A DNA stretch of 64,000 nucleotides from positions 8,089-72,088 of the IMG/VR virus record IMGVR_UViG_3300005937_000010. One strand, 5' to 3'. The stretch is from a virus. Its lineage: Duplodnaviria; Caudoviricetes. The notes below the pieces were generated by a model. The model ran no database searches, was not told where the DNA came from, and was given only the letters and a program-made list of their open reading frames with translations. Below are positions 5,538-14,606 of the stretch, piece by piece (position 1 is the stretch's first letter; the number at the start of each line of letters is the position of its first letter). Position numbers and translations under genes: made by a program.

Positions 5538-5941
5538 CAGGCGATGGAGTAGATCCCGGACGGGTCGATCTGGATGGTCACGTTCGATCCGTTCGGGGTG
5601 AACGCAATCGACGGTGACGAGTCGATCCAGGCGATCAGCGGAGCCGCCGCGTCGGAGGCGTTGTACTTATAGAGGCCGACTGCTTCGACGGTCGCACCCG
5701 TGACGCTGTTGATCGTCGGGTCGGCCGCGTCGAACGTGCCGCCCGTCGTCGTCTTGGATGCCAAGCCCGCCGCCATCCGTGCGATGATCCCGCCCGCCGT
5801 CCAGTTGGAGACGAACTGGTCGGCTGCGTTGTACGTCTCGGCACCCGTGTCGATCAGAGCGAAGCGGATGTCGTCCGTCAGGTGTGCGATGGTGCCGTCG
5901 AGAATCGCCTTGGCACCCAGTGGATAGAGAACGTTGGCCAT
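5537..5941 (-). CDS. Virion structural protein (MANxLY...IxFALID type)
   Basis: ATG at 5941 with GGAGGG; recognisable phage structural-type N-terminus. Confidence 0.6.
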   Translation of the reverse strand: MANVLYPLGAKAILDGTIAHLTDDIRFALIDTGAETYNAADQFVSNWTAGGIIARMAAGLASKTTTGGTFDAADPTINSVTGATVEAVGLYKYNASDAAAPLIAWIDSSPSIAFTPNGSNVTIQIDPSGIYSIA

Positions 5942-7940: not shown

Positions 7941-8414
7941 CTATGCTTCTTCTTCGGCTTCGGCCAGTTCGGCCTCGTGGTCTTCGATCCGCGTCTGGAT
8001 TTCCTCGATGGTGCCGGAGGTTGCCAAGCCGTACTCGCCTGCCTTCGCCTGCCAGTCGGCCTTCTTCCACTCGTCGCGGTCGTCTTCGGGTGCCGTGCCT
8101 GCGCCCTCCTCGGTGGAGAGCATCCCGGTCTGTACGGAGTCCGCCTCGACTTCGGCGTCCGTCAACTGGTTCTGCCCGTAGTCCTCCGGGTGGGCGACCG
8201 GCGACTTGTCAAGCGTCAGGTTGACGCTCGCGCTGATCGCGTTCGGGTTGTTCGGGTCGGTGTAGGCACCCACCGGCACGATGATCTGATTGAGAGTGGC
8301 CATGTCCTGGGACGCCTCCGTCGGGCCGAGGGTGGGATTGGGCTTGTCAGCCACGGGCATGTCCTGCTCGTTGCCGAAGTCGCGGGTTGCCTCCTCGGTG
8401 TCGTTCTCTGCCAT
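7941..8414 (-). CDS. Acidic head-module protein with C-terminal helix-extension-helix-like motif
   Basis: KKADWQAKAGEYGLATSGTIEEIQTRIE at C-terminus. Confidence 0.55.
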   Translation of the reverse strand: MAENDTEEATRDFGNEQDMPVADKPNPTLGPTEASQDMATLNQIIVPVGAYTDPNNPNAISASVNLTLDKSPVAHPEDYGQNQLTDAEVEADSVQTGMLSTEEGAGTAPEDDRDEWKKADWQAKAGEYGLATSGTIEEIQTRIEDHEAELAEAEEEA

Positions 8415-8426
8415 GCTCCCTCCTTC

Positions 8427-9650
8427 CTACGATCCGAGCGTCACGCGCTCGCGCTGGATTCCGTAACCGGCGAGCGCAGCGTCCGTGCTCTCACCGCTGC
8501 GGCTCAGATCCTCGCGCCGACGAACGGTGGGCGGCTGCATCTCCCCGATCACGCTCTTGATGGTGTCGTCGTCGTTGAACGCCTTGTCAACCATCTCACC
8601 GATGATCCTGTCGGCATCCTCGGTGGACTTGGCATCCGCGACGGCGGCTTCCATCTCCCCGACCGGAAGGAGGCGAGCGACGAGAGCACGCTGCTTCTCG
8701 TCGGGCACCTTCTCCTTGAGGAGCTTCTCGATGCCCACTGCCAAGGTGTCCTTGGCCTTGTCACCGATCTTGGTCTGGAGGTCGGCCACTGCCTGGAGCA
8801 GCTTGGCAGGGTCGTCGATCCCGATGGCCTCGCAGACCTTGGCAAGCAGGCTCTTGGCCTCCTCGCCTTCCTCGATCTGCTGCTCCTGCTCACCGATGGT
8901 CTTGTCCTTGTCAGCGGTGACTTCCGCGACGAGGAGCGCGTAGCCGTTCGGGTTCTCGGCCTTGAACTCCTCGGGTGTCACCTGAGCCAGTTCCTTTGCC
9001 ATGTGTGACTCCTGTTCTCCTGTGACTGCAACAACCGAGGAGCTTGGCATGCCCTCGGACAGCTTGCGTGCCCAGTCGAGCGCCTTGAGCACGAAGCCCC
9101 TCACTTCCACTCCCTTGCCGGGAACGCGGATCGCATCGCCGCTTCCCCACCACGAGATGCCGCGAACGGCCTTGGCAGGGATCAGACGGCGGATGTCCGC
9201 GCCTGGCAAGTTGTAGCCCGCGAAGTACGCGGTCGTCACCGGGTCGCCCTTGCGATCCTTCTGCTTGGACGGCTCGATCTTGGTAGTTGCCGCGAACCAC
9301 GTCGTCTGCGGCGGCGGGAAAGCAGTGCTGATCTGATCGTCGGGGATGTGACCGAGATGCCCGACAGGCTGGAGCGCGTTCGTCTGACTGACGATGGACT
9401 CCACTTCCTTGGCAGTCCACAGCCGATTGGAGCCACTCCAGCCTTCCTCGACACGCACCACGGCGAACTCCGGGCTATCGTCGCCTGTGGCCTGCACAAG
9501 CTCCGCACCCTTGGCAGAGGCACCGGGGATGAAGTTGTCCAGGCGTGACGGCTCCGTCACCATCTCCGCGATGGTTCCAGCTTCGGCCTCGCCCTGCATC
9601 TCTCCCAACGTGACCGCCTGCTTCTTGTCAGCCTTGGTCGTGACTTCCAT
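8427..9650 (-). CDS. Capsid maturation protease/scaffold protein
   Basis: Between portal and capsid; globular N-half (GHLGH, GISWWG) and coiled-coil C-half. Confidence 0.6.
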   Translation of the reverse strand: MEVTTKADKKQAVTLGEMQGEAEAGTIAEMVTEPSRLDNFIPGASAKGAELVQATGDDSPEFAVVRVEEGWSGSNRLWTAKEVESIVSQTNALQPVGHLGHIPDDQISTAFPPPQTTWFAATTKIEPSKQKDRKGDPVTTAYFAGYNLPGADIRRLIPAKAVRGISWWGSGDAIRVPGKGVEVRGFVLKALDWARKLSEGMPSSSVVAVTGEQESHMAKELAQVTPEEFKAENPNGYALLVAEVTADKDKTIGEQEQQIEEGEEAKSLLAKVCEAIGIDDPAKLLQAVADLQTKIGDKAKDTLAVGIEKLLKEKVPDEKQRALVARLLPVGEMEAAVADAKSTEDADRIIGEMVDKAFNDDDTIKSVIGEMQPPTVRRREDLSRSGESTDAALAGYGIQRERVTLGS

Positions 9651-9652
9651 GA

Positions 9653-9982
9653 CTAGATCCCGCTCTTGCGCCGACGGAGCGGGCCGGGGTTCGCCTTCTT
9701 GACCGTCTTCTTGTTATTGCGGGGCGGCTGCGGGTCGCGCTTGGTACTCCGCACCGTCGTCACGGACGTGGCGAAGCCGGAGCCGGTGTCCACGCCCTTC
9801 TGATCGGTGATCCGCGAGAACTCCGGCATGGTGCGGCCCTTGGACTCGTCACGCTTGATGAGCGTACGGATGCTGCGCTTCTTGAACACCGGCCAGCGGA
9901 AGGCACGCGCAGCGCCGTAGCTCTGCGAGCGCATCGTTGCGGGCGGCTGTCCTGACTTCGTTCTCGATACGATCCTTGCCAT
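9653..9982 (-). CDS. Small basic protein (6th of protamine-like cluster)
   Basis: 109 aa, K/R-rich, GGGGG RBS. Confidence 0.65.
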   Translation of the reverse strand: MARIVSRTKSGQPPATMRSQSYGAARAFRWPVFKKRSIRTLIKRDESKGRTMPEFSRITDQKGVDTGSGFATSVTTVRSTKRDPQPPRNNKKTVKKANPGPLRRRKSGI

Positions 9983-9986
9983 CTTG

Positions 9987-10124
9987 TCACCCCCTCTGCC
10001 TTACGCGGCGGTTGTTTGAGTTGGGCGCGGCATACCTCGGGCCATAGATGCCGGGGAACTTGCGCGTCTTGGCAAGGTTCGTACCGCCCTTGAGAAACTT
10101 GGTCTTCTTGACGATGCGAGGCAT
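9987..10124 (-). CDS. Small basic protein (5th)
   Basis: MPRIVKKTKFLKGGTNLAKTRKFPGIYGPRYAAPNSNNRRVRQRG; TAATG overlap with upstream gene. Confidence 0.7.
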   Translation of the reverse strand: MPRIVKKTKFLKGGTNLAKTRKFPGIYGPRYAAPNSNNRRVRQRG

Positions 10125-10246
10125 TAGCGCCGCCTCCGTCGTCCACGCACCCCGCGTGTTCTGAGGACGCGGATCGCGTTGGCACGCAGTGTCCTCGGAG
10201 ATGCGGCCGTGATGCTGCCCTGTGGTGCTCCTAGTACCTGTGGCAT
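10124..10246 (-). CDS. Small basic protein (4th)
   Basis: MPQVLGAPQGSITAASPRTLRANAIRVLRTRGVRGRRRRR; ATG directly after upstream TAG. Confidence 0.7.
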   Translation of the reverse strand: MPQVLGAPQGSITAASPRTLRANAIRVLRTRGVRGRRRRR

Positions 10247-10459
10247 CTACTTCCTCCTTCTCCGACGCTTGGCAGCCGCTCGCTTGCGTCCACGCGCGGC
10301 CATGCGTGCCATCTTCTTCTTCCCGTACTTCTTACGGCCCGCAGCGGCAGCGACGGCATTTGGGTTCCTCGCTCCGCTACGGCGCGCACTGGCAGCGACA
10401 GCCTTGAATCGCTTTCCGCTGCCAAGCTTGGCCTTCCTGCGGCCTTTGCGGCGTGCCAT
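10247..10459 (-). CDS. Protamine-like protein (3rd)
   Basis: MARRKGRRKAK...AAAKRRRRRK; no Asp or Glu; GGAGGAAGG RBS. Confidence 0.8.
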   Translation of the reverse strand: MARRKGRRKAKLGSGKRFKAVAASARRSGARNPNAVAAAAGRKKYGKKKMARMAARGRKRAAAKRRRRRK

Positions 10460-10460
10460 C

Positions 10461-10586
10461 TCAACGTCCCTTCCTCCTGCGTGTCACAGCCCGCATCCGC
10501 ATCGCGGCACGCTGCTTCGGATTGCGGATCTGACGCTTGCGCACAGGGCGCTTGCGGCGAATGCTCCTGGGCCTGCCACGCTTCAC
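10461..10586 (-). CDS. Protamine-like protein (2nd)
   Basis: GTG start in GTGA overlap; MKRGRPRSIRRKRPVRKRQIRNPKQRAAMRMRAVTRRRKGR. Confidence 0.7.
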   Translation of the reverse strand: MKRGRPRSIRRKRPVRKRQIRNPKQRAAMRMRAVTRRRKGR

Positions 10587-10699
10587 TTCTTCCTCTTTCT
10601 CCGCTTCTTGGCAATGCGATTGAAGTGGTGCTTGCGCGCCCATGCTGGCCCTTTGACCGCATAGGCCCAACGCTGCTGTCTTCTGCTTCGGGCTGGCAT
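10583..10699 (-). CDS. Protamine-like protein (1st)
   Basis: TAATG overlap with portal stop; MPARSRRQQRWAYAVKGPAWARKHHFNRIAKKRRKRKK. Confidence 0.7.
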   Translation of the reverse strand: MPARSRRQQRWAYAVKGPAWARKHHFNRIAKKRRKRKK

Positions 10700-12225
10700 T
10701 ATCTACTCCCCACGGCAGCCTTGGCAGCCGACTTGCTGCCCTTGCCGTTGCTCGACGCTTGTGTCGGACTCGCCGGAGCGGGTGCCGGTACCGGAGGCTC
10801 GTAGTTCGTCTTGGCAAGACTCGCCTCCGTCTCCGGGTCGTTCATCTCCGGGAATAGGCTGCCAAGAATCTCGATGGCCGTCTCGTCCGCCATCCAGCGG
10901 TGCAGGGTGGCAACATCCATCGCCAGCACGACTTGCTGGAGAGCTTGGGCCTTGGCAGCCAGATCGGTAAGCCGGAGCACCGGCCACACGATGCGTACCG
11001 TGACCGGAGTCTTACCGGAGCTTGCCAAGGCCATCTTGCAGAGCATGACGACGAACTCCCCGAAGCCCACGCGCTTGCGAGTGATCTTCTTCTCAAACGG
11101 CTGCACGGAAGCGTCCTTGTCCTGCGCTCCCATCTCCTTGAGGATCGCCCACTTCGGAATCTCCCCGGCGATGCAGATGCAGTCGATCAGGAACTCCAGG
11201 AGCGTCTTGGAGTCGCCAAGCACCGACTTGGCTTCGATGAAGCCAGCCTCCTCCTCCACGTTGAGCAGGTACATCTCGCGGCCGGTCAACTCCACCTTGG
11301 CATGCGGCACAATCTGCCCGTTCTCGTCCAACGCAGCCGGGAAGTTGTGCTTGAGGAAGGCGTACACGTCCTTGAGCTTGAAGTACGCCTTGGGAGTCGA
11401 GTGGTACTTGTGCGCCGTGAGCGTCTGGAGCAGTACCTCGTGGAACGCCTGGATGAACGGGAGCACCGGCTCGATGTCAGACTGACCGCCTGCCAAGCTC
11501 ACGTCGTACTCGTTGTAAGAGGGCCAGAGCGGAACGAACTTCCAGGTGTTCCGCGTCTGCCAGCTTGTCAGTTCGCGGTTCTCGGTCTTGTCATAGAAGC
11601 GGTACTCCTGCGGGGTGATCGTCTCGATGATGTGGTGCTCGCGCATGCGCGGAGCCACGCCCTGGAGTATCTCCTCCTCCGTGCGCTCGTCCATCTCGTA
11701 CCAGTGGTTGACCATCGCCATGATGACAAGCTCTGGATCGGTGGGATCGAACTGCAAGTCCACCGTCTCGGGCGGGATGCACTCGATCTTCCCGTGCATC
11801 CGATCCTCCTCCGTGAACAGCGGGTTCTGGAGGTTCGGCTGCCGGAAGCGCACGATGGCCTTGGAGTCCCTGAGCGTGTCACGCCACACTTGCTGGATCT
11901 GCGGTGCCCAGTGTTGGTGTAGGCACTTGTTCAGCCACGAGTCGTTCGTGCCGTTGTCGCTTGTCACGCTAGGGATCCCCACGTACTCGACCGTTAGGTC
12001 GATCAGGGGGCGCACGAAACCGGCACCGAGGTTGTACGCCGGGTTGTCGTTGCGGTAGAGGCCGCGAGCCACGTCGTACGTGATTTCGGTTCCCGACATC
12101 GCCGGACGATGCATGAAGTTCCCGCCGTCCCAGGAGTTGCGCAGCGCCGTCCATGAACTGCCAAGCCCGATGCTGCGAGAGATGTCCACAACTTGCTCGC
12201 CTATCCAACGGAGTGGATTACGCAC
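10699..12225 (-). CDS. Portal protein
   Basis: 508 aa between terminase and scaffold; SPP1/A118-like portal segments. Confidence 0.75.
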   Translation of the reverse strand: MRNPLRWIGEQVVDISRSIGLGSSWTALRNSWDGGNFMHRPAMSGTEITYDVARGLYRNDNPAYNLGAGFVRPLIDLTVEYVGIPSVTSDNGTNDSWLNKCLHQHWAPQIQQVWRDTLRDSKAIVRFRQPNLQNPLFTEEDRMHGKIECIPPETVDLQFDPTDPELVIMAMVNHWYEMDERTEEEILQGVAPRMREHHIIETITPQEYRFYDKTENRELTSWQTRNTWKFVPLWPSYNEYDVSLAGGQSDIEPVLPFIQAFHEVLLQTLTAHKYHSTPKAYFKLKDVYAFLKHNFPAALDENGQIVPHAKVELTGREMYLLNVEEEAGFIEAKSVLGDSKTLLEFLIDCICIAGEIPKWAILKEMGAQDKDASVQPFEKKITRKRVGFGEFVVMLCKMALASSGKTPVTVRIVWPVLRLTDLAAKAQALQQVVLAMDVATLHRWMADETAIEILGSLFPEMNDPETEASLAKTNYEPPVPAPAPASPTQASSNGKGSKSAAKAAVGSR

Positions 12226-12829
12226 CGTGAGTCACATCCTTGTCAGTGTGCTCTGCCGTCATCGCAAACAACTCGTCCACGATTTCGGCGGCGCGCGAGA
12301 CGACTTCGGGCGGCGCATTCTCTGCCAAGGCTTCGATCAGCCCTGACTTGTCCACAAGCTCTACCTCGTGCTCCTCGCGGATCGTCTGCGCCGACTTGGA
12401 CTCGCTCTTGTTCACCTTGGTAAGCCCGATCCGATCCAGGTACTCGCAGATCGCCTGGATTGCAACCTTGTCATCGTCCGTGGTGCGGGCGATTTCCGCG
12501 AGCATCTCCATCATCTCAAAGCTGTGCGTCTGCCCGAACTTGACGGCCGCATCCACCATGTTCTTGACAAGCTCAGCGGCGCGGGCCTGCATCTCCGGCT
12601 CCTGAAACCACTTCTTGATGATGTCGCGTGACAAGCCGAGAGCGTCCGCGATGTAGATGTACGAGAAGTTGCTCGCCTTGTAGTGACATGCCAACTCGCG
12701 CTTCACCTGGCGGTCGAACGCCGTCAGGGAGCCTTCGGTCGTCAGCTTGCGCTCGCGCTTGGTACCCCTCTTGTAGCGGGCCTTCAACTCGTTGCGGGCC
12801 TCCGCTACGGTTGCAGGCGATTTACGCAT
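12218..12829 (-). CDS. HTH protein, possible terminase small subunit
   Basis: SYIYIADALGLSRDIIKKWF helix-turn-helix; adjacent to large terminase. Confidence 0.5.
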   Translation of the reverse strand: MRKSPATVAEARNELKARYKRGTKRERKLTTEGSLTAFDRQVKRELACHYKASNFSYIYIADALGLSRDIIKKWFQEPEMQARAAELVKNMVDAAVKFGQTHSFEMMEMLAEIARTTDDDKVAIQAICEYLDRIGLTKVNKSESKSAQTIREEHEVELVDKSGLIEALAENAPPEVVSRAAEIVDELFAMTAEHTDKDVTHGA

Positions 12830-14606
12830 CCCAGTCTCCTCTCACGGGCACTGCCGTCGCCATAAGCCCACCGGCCGCTGCCAAGACAGCGCCGACATCC
12901 TCGGGAACGTACAGCGGCGCTTCCTTCATGCTGGCCACGAGCGCGAACATGCCACTGTGGTGCCAGTGGTCGGGCTTCTTCCCCGAATCGCCCTTGGTAT
13001 TCACCCAGCGAGCGACCTCGCGCTCAGAGGCGTCTGCCTGCTCCACGCGCACCATCGAGAAGTGGTGTGCGTACCAGGCGTTGTACGGGAGTCTTGGCAT
13101 CATCTCGCCAAGCTCAGCGGCGTCGGCGGGAAGCGCCATGTTCCCGTCGAGAAACTGCTTGATGTAGGAGTCGAAGGCCATCGTACGGTCGATGTTCACC
13201 TTGGTAGGCTCACCGTACTTCGCAGGGATCCAGTTAGCCGTCTCGTGCTGCTCCGGCCTGTCCTTCTCAAAGCCCATCCAGAAGCGCTCCGGGTACTGCT
13301 TGCTCAGGAACTCCACTTGCTCCTTGTCAGGGTGCGCGTCACAGACCGCGACCCAGTTCCCCAGCTTGGTAAGGATTCGGTCGTTCAGGACTTGCCACTT
13401 CGTCTGCCCGCCGCGCCCCGTGATCGTCTCGATCTTCCACAGTCGCAGCTTGGTAGGTGTGCGAGGATCGCGGTTGTAGACGGAGACGAACAGCACGTCG
13501 TGGCCCACGTCGATCCCGATGAACAGCATCCCGTTGAACGGCCCGCCGAGCAGGTAATCCTGACGACAGCGGTTGAGAAGCTGCACCGTGAACTTGTCAC
13601 CGGCTGCGGCGTACGGGAGGCCGAGAGCCAGGTTGTAGAACGCCTTGAGCTTCTTGGAGTCCAACTGCCCCTTGTACCAGTTCGTGAGAATGCCAAGACT
13701 GGGATCCGTGAGCGTGGCCGTGGGAGAGTTGAACTGGTTGAGATGATAACCCCGCTTGGCAGCCCCAGGGGCATCCGGCACCCACACACCTTTGGCGTTC
13801 ATGTTCGCGCGATCCGCGTCTGTCCAGGAGCGCTTGCAGTGTGAGCACCGGCATGCTTCGTGGCTGTCCTCCAGCTTGTCACCCAGGAAGGAAGCCACGT
13901 TCTCCTCAAAGGTGATGATCTGCTTGGCAGAGCAGAACGGGCACGGCACCCACCAACGCATCTGATCGCACAATCCCCATGCATCGTCGGCGTAGACACC
14001 GTGGCCATCGACGGTGGGTGTGCTGATTTCGTAGATGCGCTGGATGTGCGAGCCTGACAAGCGCGCCCTGGCGTCATCGAGATTGTCCTCGTTCGCCTTG
14101 TCGCGCTCGTCCAGTACGAGGATGTCGGCCGGAACCTCGCGTAGCTCCGTCTCGATGTTCGTCCCTCGTATGTACCAGTTGACGCCGCGCTTCGTCTGCT
14201 TCTGGCTCCTGTTGTCCGTACGGGAGAACTCTGCCTTTAGCTTGGCATTGGAGTCGATGATCGGGTCGATACGGCCCTGAACGAACTGGATCGAGCCAGC
14301 TTTGAGAGGCAGGAGGTAGAGCACATGCCAGGCGCGCTTGACAACCATGTGCGCGCATTTGGTGATGAAGACGGTTGTGTATCCAAGCTGCGCGCCCTTC
14401 GGGCCGATGATGTGCTTGGACTCGTCACGGAGGATCGCCTGCTCGTACTCACGGCCCCTCAGATCGAAGGCATGACCATCTACGGCCAGCCGTAGGCTGG
14501 CTGCCCAAAAGTCAGGCCACGCCTTGGCGCGCACGGCATCGGCCTGCGCTCGTGTCAAGCGGCGCGGATCCGATGCGGACAGGGTTTGCGAGTCTGCGGC
14601 TGCCAA
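12822..14606 (-). CDS. terL: Terminase large subunit (lambda gpA-like)
   Basis: KGAQLGYT, VLYLLP, FVQGRIDPII, LVLDERD, ISTPT motifs; Zn ribbon; GIDVG and KPDHWHH nuclease motifs. Confidence 0.9.
   Translation of the reverse strand: MAAADSQTLSASDPRRLTRAQADAVRAKAWPDFWAASLRLAVDGHAFDLRGREYEQAILRDESKHIIGPKGAQLGYTTVFITKCAHMVVKRAWHVLYLLPLKAGSIQFVQGRIDPIIDSNAKLKAEFSRTDNRSQKQTKRGVNWYIRGTNIETELREVPADILVLDERDKANEDNLDDARARLSGSHIQRIYEISTPTVDGHGVYADDAWGLCDQMRWWVPCPFCSAKQIITFEENVASFLGDKLEDSHEACRCSHCKRSWTDADRANMNAKGVWVPDAPGAAKRGYHLNQFNSPTATLTDPSLGILTNWYKGQLDSKKLKAFYNLALGLPYAAAGDKFTVQLLNRCRQDYLLGGPFNGMLFIGIDVGHDVLFVSVYNRDPRTPTKLRLWKIETITGRGGQTKWQVLNDRILTKLGNWVAVCDAHPDKEQVEFLSKQYPERFWMGFEKDRPEQHETANWIPAKYGEPTKVNIDRTMAFDSYIKQFLDGNMALPADAAELGEMMPRLPYNAWYAHHFSMVRVEQADASEREVARWVNTKGDSGKKPDHWHHSGMFALVASMKEAPLYVPEDVGAVLAAAGGLMATAVPVRGDWDA

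Follow-up and report, generated by a model that had tools for sequence, protein, structure and literature searches.

Basic head proteins in phages and eukaryotic viruses

Tailed phages are thought to pack their DNA in an essentially naked state, its charge being offset by small cations, and protein 'cores' count as a trait of eukaryotic double-stranded DNA viruses. Among the proteins that travel in phage heads, SPP1 gp7 binds DNA and sits inside the head in association with the portal, and the internal proteins IPI, IPII and IPIII of T4 (basic, 10–20 kDa) bear a cleavable N-terminal capsid-targeting sequence cut by the head protease after Glu, are loaded into the prohead and are injected with the DNA. 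Here we describe a cassette of six minute genes between the portal and scaffold genes of an uncultured soil phage, all encoding strongly basic products. The stretch of DNA analysed (the window; 64,000 nucleotides, G+C content 62.5%) covers positions 8089–72088 of the IMG/VR record IMGVR_UViG_3300005937_000010, which carries direct terminal repeats and is judged complete at 72,088 bp. Based on comparison with related phages, the cassette is a late-operon set of six separately translated micro-genes, comprising a core of four families (A, B, C and D; o41, o40, o45 and o109) and two genes, o38 and o70, that appear to have been acquired.

The nearest precedent is found in the proteome table of the cultured mycobacteriophage Patience, where polybasic virion proteins encoded after the portal represent a known but uncharacterised kind. 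In that phage, gp111 (37 residues), gp9 and gp10–gp18 are encoded between the portal gp8 and the protease gp19 and are tabulated as 'virion proteins' (PMC4324244). Particle-associated peptides identified by high-performance liquid chromatography with tandem mass spectrometry revealed the unannotated 37-codon gene 111, and the products of all inserted structural-operon genes except the 31-residue gp9 were found in particles, gp15 forming one of three major gel bands (PMC4324244). The word 'basic' does not occur in that paper and the charge pattern is left undiscussed (PMC4324244). The net charges are +14 for gp111, +26 for gp10, +40 for gp11, +20 for gp12, +39 for gp13, +39 for gp14, +46 for gp15, +6 for gp16, +30 for gp17 and +49 for gp18, with almost no Asp or Glu in any of these slot proteins except gp16. 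A 2.4 Å icosahedral map of Patience from 2025 models the major capsid protein (MCP), the minor capsid protein and gp4 only and leaves gp15 unmentioned (PMC11965321). The polybasic slot proteins are virion components but apparently do not belong to the ordered shell, which fits their absence from the 2.4 Å model.

Patience shares with the present locus the slot itself, directly after the portal and before the head protease or scaffold, a run of highly positive proteins, those of Patience ending in polybasic C-termini, and a similar genome size (70.5 kb, compared with 72 kb here). In contrast, the Patience proteins are mostly larger (65–295 residues) and carry an N-terminal TPxRRAALKKAQ tag that is absent from the cassette proteins. 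Patience furthermore keeps a MuF-like gene, which this phage does not; the MuF model PF04233 gave no match at E ≤ 1 across all six frames of the complete 72-kb genome.

Among cultured phages, the head module is shared only by Bacillus, Weizmannia and Clostridioides phages (21 records). In the two inspected, phiCD27 and BalMu-1, one ~335-residue 'head morphogenesis' protein (gp04 and gp27, respectively) lies between portal and scaffold. It is a member of phrog_1657 and has relatives in phrog_115 'minor head protein' and in toxin-domain-fused families, in line with an earlier note on this DNA, made from the sequence alone, which had stated that the slot often holds internal head proteins. Both proteins fall below the Pfam MuF threshold at E ≤ 0.01 and are of the gp7/MuF type via their PHROG families only. 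The likeness to SPP1 gp7 and Mu gpF lies in the portal-to-scaffold slot of the nearest cultured phages, whereas that type is a single folded protein of ~300–335 residues and the cassette has no sequence similarity to gp7 or MuF. The T4 internal proteins represent a functional analogue as head cargo travelling with the genome; they are far less charged than the cassette proteins, and no homology was found in Pfam or PHROG.

For the mode of action proposed below, with peptides serving as counter-ions of packaged DNA, the closest match is provided by adenovirus VII and mu and baculovirus P6.9, which are small, Arg-rich proteins free of acidic residues that neutralise and condense the genome in the capsid (PMC7998265, PMC6669607). 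These core proteins assemble or condense with the DNA, whereas a tailed phage pumps naked DNA through its portal, so that the cassette peptides would have to be pre-loaded or small enough to ride on the DNA. The term 'protamine-like' used by the earlier note describes the composition of the products only: homology to protamines or eukaryotic-virus core proteins was not found, with no Pfam match at E ≤ 1 for any of the six proteins. Full-text literature searches returned protamine-like and core proteins for eukaryotic viruses only, and no Arg-rich internal peptides in tailed phages.

The six micro-genes and their relatives

Searching with the portal in IMG/VR, JGI metagenomes and Logan assemblies, we obtained relatives that fell into two clades. 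Clade 1, with portals 55–72% identical to that of the window, comprises six other distinct relatives (L016, L001, L002, L003/L004, L031 and L032). In each of them the portal is followed by A, B, C and D in that order, with lengths of 39–43, 40–50, 41–53 and 101–157 residues, respectively, and the scaffold gene comes after D wherever the contig extends far enough. Both o38 and o70 are missing from all six, including L016, and look like insertions because they are placed exactly at gene junctions. The earlier note had taken the six as one uniform set; this view gives way to a conserved four-gene core, A–D, with two inserted genes. Clade 2, with portals of ~40% identity (L010, L012, L013, L015, L020, L021, L024, L027 and L028), has its own slot cassette of 4–7 small basic genes, six of which were called independently by JGI in L024. 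Family A alone is clearly shared across the clades (alignment A3). The hhalign probabilities for the remaining pairs were 0.6% for B against F', 1.3% for C against C' and 15% for D against D', and the cross-clade equivalence of B, C and D appears to be positional or motif-level only. A clade-2 protein, E', was also considered as a homologue of o70, and the comparison found no homology.

To compare substitution patterns, Nei–Gojobori estimates were obtained between the window and L016, the closest clade-1 relative. Family A yielded an ω of 0.19, with 82% amino-acid identity compared with 71% for the portal, family B an ω of 0.24 and family D an ω of 0.45, whereas the portal and scaffold genes used for comparison showed 0.22 and 0.31, respectively. 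For family C, pN was 0.30 and pS 0.75. The substitutions in A–D cluster at third codon positions, and by this comparison the four families are under purifying selection.

Decisive for regarding the six ORFs (open reading frames) as real genes, and not as GC-rich artefacts, is the conservation of order and sequence in the relatives. The check on synteny and frame conservation proposed in the earlier note came out positively, with the frames and order of A–D kept in all six relatives of clade 1. We regard it as extremely improbable that the ORFs arise incidentally from high-GC sequence or from a gene on the antisense strand or in another frame, even though off-frame Arg-rich ORFs are common in a genome of this G+C content, long antisense ORFs overlap the cassette, and the G+C content at third codon positions (GC3) is merely 0.61–0.74 for o38, o41, o70 and o40. 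Composition by itself is weak evidence for gene status: among the 499 six-frame ORFs of 35–120 residues in the window, 12 have at least 26% Lys plus Arg and no Asp or Glu, 8 of which lie outside the cassette. These eight contain 0–5% Lys, compared with 13–19% in o38, o45 and o70, a difference that itself argues against by-products; o40 has no Lys, yet it is conserved. The same by-product view is opposed by the amino-acid conservation with third-position-biased substitution in the A–D frames, by the six-gene equivalent that the independent JGI gene caller found in L024, and by the 564 homologues and confident AlphaFold2 (AF2) fold of o70. Family A was left uncalled by the annotating pipelines in L027 (~790–943) and L028 (~5700–5830), where its frames are open and conserved, and genes of 40–50 codons in the portal–scaffold slot are routinely missed by gene calling.

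The basic description given by the earlier note, six ORFs of 38, 41, 70, 40, 45 and 109 residues with strongly Arg/Lys-rich products, the first five lacking Asp and Glu, was reproduced in our ORF and composition counts, with all six on the minus strand (Table 1). Together they fill positions 9653–10699. Lys and Arg make up 26–51% of the residues of the individual products, and acidic residues are confined to o109 (4 Asp and 2 Glu). Summed over the six, 343 residues include 120 Lys or Arg and 6 Asp or Glu, resulting in a net charge of +114, and the individual proteins carry +0.2 to +0.5 charges per residue with 11–24% hydrophobic residues. Models suggest polycations with either intrinsic disorder or a simple helical structure.

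Table 1 Genes of the cassette and of the surrounding head module (window coordinates; SD, Shine–Dalgarno motif)
Feature	Length (residues)	Net charge	Coordinates	Strand	Remarks
GpA-type large terminase			12822-14606	-	head module
TerS-like protein	203		12218-12829	-	weak small-terminase PHROG matches
Portal	508	-14	10699-12225	-	phrog_64, E 3.6e-11
o38	38	+16	10583-10699	-	no Asp/Glu; SD-like GGGGAG upstream
o41 (family A)	41	+21	10461-10586	-	GTG start; 51% Lys+Arg
o70	70	+31	10247-10459	-	
o40 (family B)	40	+11	10124-10246	-	basic residues Arg only; GGAGG SD
o45 (family C)	45	+13	9987-10124	-	GC3 0.80
o109 (family D)	109	+22	9653-9982	-	GC3 0.86
Scaffold/protease-like head assembly protein	407	-19	8427-9650	-	phrog_3219, E 9e-15
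Very acidic protein	157	-29	7941-8414	-	noted by composition; between scaffold and decoration genes

The junctions are mostly of the TAATG, GTGA or abutting types reported before, the remaining ones being spacers of 1–4 nt. The portal stop codon TAA overlaps the ATG of o38 by 1 nt (TAATG), o38 and o41 overlap by 4 nt (GTGA), o41 and o70 are separated by 1 nt, o70 and o40 abut (TAG|ATG), o40 and o45 are joined by a further TAATG, and spacers of 4 and 2 nt follow o45 and o109, respectively. A purine-rich SD-like motif precedes all six starts. The earlier note had listed four of the ORFs as missed or mis-started in the ORF track; a length cut-off of 60 residues would drop three of the six, and a longest-ORF rule mis-starts o41 as a 118-residue ORF with a TTG codon.

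By sequence comparison family A is the most conserved member, following the portal in all relatives of both clades, with the L024-type variants keeping a divergent form. It combines an N-terminal K-[RK]-G-R-P with a central [NS]PKQxAA and a polybasic C-terminal tail, RRRKGR. The G-R dipeptide is invariant in 11/11 aligned sequences and the next Pro is kept in 8/11; the full G-R-P is retained throughout clade 1, where five sequences have KRGRPRS or RRGRPRS and two further ones KKGRP. This K(R/K)GRP start resembles an AT-hook, a resemblance that may serve as a lead only, as the Pfam AT_hook profile (PF02178) gave no match in the genome or Pfam scan. A ribosomal-protein mimic of the bL34 type was likewise considered for family A and set aside, with no Pfam or NCBIfam ribosomal model matching at E ≤ 1. 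No fused or longer forms of family A were found, which is weak evidence.

The conserved pattern of family B reads ...G.ITA.P..LR..AIR.L..GV.GRRRR, whereas family C has an N-terminal M-P-R-I-V-K-K and a central PGIYGPRY. Family D shows an N-terminal MARIV..K.G.P, a core (R/K)S(I/V)RTLIKRDE(S/A)KG.T.PEF and a C-terminal GPL+RR (alignment A5). It is predicted to be disordered: the AF2 model has a predicted local distance difference test score (pLDDT) of 59 and a predicted template-modelling score (pTM) of 0.16 and lacks secondary structure, and the ESM Atlas model has a pLDDT of 0.28, so that its structural neighbours in the ESM Atlas are meaningless. We observed that C and D both start with M-[AP]-R-I-V-x-[KR]-T-K and that Patience gp111 (L025:2382–2495) starts with V-A-R-I-G-R-R-K; this shared start may be an N-terminal loading tag or merely the common MAR... 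start of basic proteins. Pfam and NCBIfam scans yielded no match for any of the six proteins, and the PHROG scan none except weak ones for o38. For the clade-2 equivalents, the same three databases yielded phrog_20603 and phrog_25798 only. As far as database comparison goes, families A–D are new and rare: the A profile found 7 proteins only among 5.8 billion, and D 16 representative clusters among 1.84 billion, that is, 7 and 16 database clusters.

The two additional genes point to other widespread small-protein families of actinophages as their source, probably so in the case of o38. Comparing 1000 shuffles of o38 with ten Patience proteins, we obtained shuffled local-alignment scores of 38.5 ± 4.9, with 0/1000 reaching the score of 71 observed between o38 and Patience gp10. 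The common core motif, Q-x-R-W-A-[FY]-A-x-K-x-P-W-A-R, goes beyond compositional expectation. The o38 PHROG matches are confined to phrog_1375 and phrog_5320 (E 0.11–0.14), which gp10 matches at 1e-31 and 1e-28, respectively, and the gp10 family is present in 484 actinophage records. A tblastn search with o38 against 50,697 phage records, run with the low-complexity filter on, gave no match at E ≤ 1. Taken together, o38, which looks like an insertion specific to the window, is a probable distant member of the gp10 family.

At E ≤ 0.01 the unnamed, widespread o70 family counts 564 homologues, the best at 2e-19 and with identities of the aligned parts reaching 95%; it has the consensus ...KLGSGKRFKAVAASARxSGARNPxAVAAAAGRKKYGxKKMAKMAAAGRKR..., which o70 matches over its full length (KLGSGKRF...GARNP.AVAAAAGRKKYG). 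Homologues follow family A in the same slot in the clade-2 phages L027 and L028, lie directly after the MCP in a different 75-kb phage contig (L029), and stand beside terminase and portal in a Streptomyces prophage (L026); by sequence, the family turns up repeatedly in the head modules of actinophages that are unrelated. From an alignment of 121 sequences, AF2 predicted a helical hairpin bearing a basic tail, with a pLDDT of 82 and helices at residues 15–28 and 33–69. Searches of Pfam, PHROG, NCBIfam and the PDB gave no match for o70, Foldseek returned no solved or named structural relative, and the BFVD search returned uncharacterised homologues only. Searching cultured phages by tblastn with o70 and the clade-2 D' gave no match with the low-complexity filter on. 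The affinities of o38 and o70 suggest that the host is probably actinobacterial. Searching 185,579 species genomes via the portal gave no prophage relatives.

The slot that follows family A varies, being occupied by unrelated small basic proteins in different relatives (L002:2086–2205, L013:2610–2825, L021:3099–3341 and L024:7966–8169). The second-slot protein of L021 and L024 is phrog_20603, and phrog_25798 was also matched among the alternative second-slot proteins. Homologues of phrog_20603 include Thermus phage P23-45 gp111 and the gene directly after the portal of the crAss-like phage cr118_1, annotated as 'transcriptional regulator'. Right after the o70 homologue of L027, a 38-residue hyper-acidic ORF (L027:1141–1257; net charge −14, rich in Glu, Pro and Gln) was called, which could represent either a built-in counter-charge or a false prediction.

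The surrounding head operon

All genes around the cassette are on the minus strand and follow the order of a lambda-like head module, the cassette lying inside the operon that runs from the large terminase to the MCP. The portal is 28–31% identical to annotated Bacillus and Clostridioides phage portals. The scaffold/protease-like protein also shows a weak head-maturation-protease match and is syntenic with phiCD27 gp05 and BalMu-1 gp28. Past the very acidic 157-residue protein, the module continues with a decoration-like protein and the MCP (phrog_3116, Pfam Phage_capsid_4). The acidic protein may be a partner of the basic peptides; in relatives, the proteins at the corresponding position contain a PF02817 E3_binding (peripheral-subunit-binding) domain, unusual for a head module. 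The TerS-like gene lies between large terminase and portal, where lambda has W, instead of preceding the large terminase; it is placed likewise in L024 and L028.

The sole strong minus-strand promoter-like site (10/12 matches) and the sole minus-strand stem-loop of 10 pairs are both located upstream of the terminase, and a weaker promoter-like match at the portal/o38 junction (10727–10698, 9/12) was not above shuffle expectation. No minus-strand terminator-like sites were detected within the cassette, and an Rfam scan of the region gave zero family matches and no structured RNA. Throughout the window the heptamer TGCCAAG occurs in 315 copies, compared with 8.8 expected. Four copies lie in the cassette, at 10068–10074, 10268–10274 and 10607–10613 on the minus strand, where they encode Ala-Lys (GCC AAG) in o45, o70 and o38, respectively, and at 10420–10426 on the plus strand.

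Candidate functions and meaning for DNA packing

We consider the best explanation of the cassette, with a probability of roughly 0.45, to be a set of polycations that are made with the portal and scaffold and packaged in the head as counter-ions of the DNA. After co-expression with portal and scaffold, the peptides would enter the procapsid, probably via electrostatic association with the acidic scaffold and the 157-residue protein, and would remain in the head once the scaffold exits. On the packaged DNA they would act as fixed counter-ions, sharing the job of Mg2+ and polyamines, and would exit with the DNA or shortly after. Of this sequence of events, we infer all steps beyond co-expression, including virion presence, loading route, DNA binding and the post-ejection role. 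Packaging in the head is likely, chiefly by analogy with Patience; the location of the cassette between portal and scaffold within the head operon, the use of this slot for minor head or virion proteins, the missing MuF match, the probable relation of o38 to the particle-associated Patience gp10 and the recurrence of the o70 family in other head modules point the same way. A counter-ion function is plausible, whereas protection of the DNA after ejection, raised in the earlier note, is speculative. The genome contains 144,176 DNA phosphates, and ~126 sets of +114 neutralise 10% of this charge, a number that is plausible if the copy number is scaffold-like.

Several observations weigh against this explanation. 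Except for o38, the similarity to Patience is compositional and positional only: shuffle tests against the Patience proteins were not significant for A, o70, B, C and D, and family A, considered as a homologue of the N-terminal tag of gp11–18, reached an hhalign probability of 2%. Association with the Patience particle does not in itself demonstrate an internal location or DNA binding, and a cryo-electron microscopy paper from 2020 tentatively put gp15 on the shell as an accessory protein (PMC7150772). Furthermore, a cleavable targeting sequence of the T4 type is not recognisable, with o38, A, o70, B and C being devoid of Glu, and members of the o70 family are also found away from the slot and encoded on the opposite strand in a prophage.

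In an assembly-only role, the peptides would act as helpers that are not kept in the mature virion; they might serve to nucleate the acidic scaffold or portal, to neutralise its charge or to aid scaffold exit upon DNA entry. The tight coupling to portal and scaffold, the two very acidic flanking proteins and the predicted disorder of D would suit such helpers, but compositionally equivalent Patience proteins occur in purified particles, and 4–7 separately conserved peptides seem elaborate for a transient chaperone, rendering this role unlikely. The peptides could also stay in the particle as staples of the capsid shell, disordered when free and ordered on the inner or inter-capsomer surface, where they would strengthen the shell against the pressure of the DNA. 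Patience gp4 (102 residues; 54 in Adjutor) sets the example, being a random coil in its free form and becoming ordered within the capsid, and it scales with genome density (PMC11965321); the genome of this phage is of similar size (72 kb). However, gp4 is mildly basic (+6 in 102 residues) compared with the charge density of the cassette proteins and is encoded elsewhere in the Patience genome, and the polybasic Patience proteins are unmodelled in the 2.4 Å shell map, so that staples are decidedly improbable.

A role apart from the particle, as non-structural nucleic-acid binders merely sited in the head operon, such as late regulators or host-directed factors, is quite unlikely as well. RNA-binding Arg-rich peptides, translational couplers, nucleoid compaction factors and ribosome-directed proteins would be examples, and arginine-rich motifs bind RNA as readily as DNA. 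The annotation of the L021/L024 second-slot homologue as 'transcriptional regulator' in a crAss-like phage, together with a weak ribbon–helix–helix resemblance, and the occasional occurrence of the o70 family outside the head operon point in the same direction. Against it stand the strictly conserved portal–scaffold position in both clades, the lack of any ribosomal-protein or regulator match in Pfam and NCBIfam, and the absence of structured RNA in the region.

Returning to polycations packaged as DNA counter-ions, a broader view is that a tailed-phage lineage, probably actinobacterial, swapped a single minor head protein for a set of micro-polycations, creating a protein–DNA 'core' in an HK97-type head that Patience-type actinophages would have reached independently; we regard this as possible but doubtful. 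If true, 100–300 sets, assuming a scaffold-like copy number, would neutralise roughly 8–25% of the genome charge and lower the packaging and ejection pressure, and the peptides would enter the cell on the DNA and could shield it from nucleases. The cassette would then correspond, among bacteriophages, to adenovirus VII/mu or baculovirus P6.9.

Genes of 38–50 codons in this slot are systematically missed, as illustrated by family A, uncalled in several relatives, and by Patience gene 111, found only by mass spectrometry. A micro-polycation cassette under selection, together with a proteomically supported analogue in Patience, suggests that some phages may encode their own counter-ions, an idea for which Patience, cultured on M. 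smegmatis mc2 155, offers a tractable system. Encoded counter-ions would affect models of packaging force, ejection pressure, capsid stability and the first contact with host defences.

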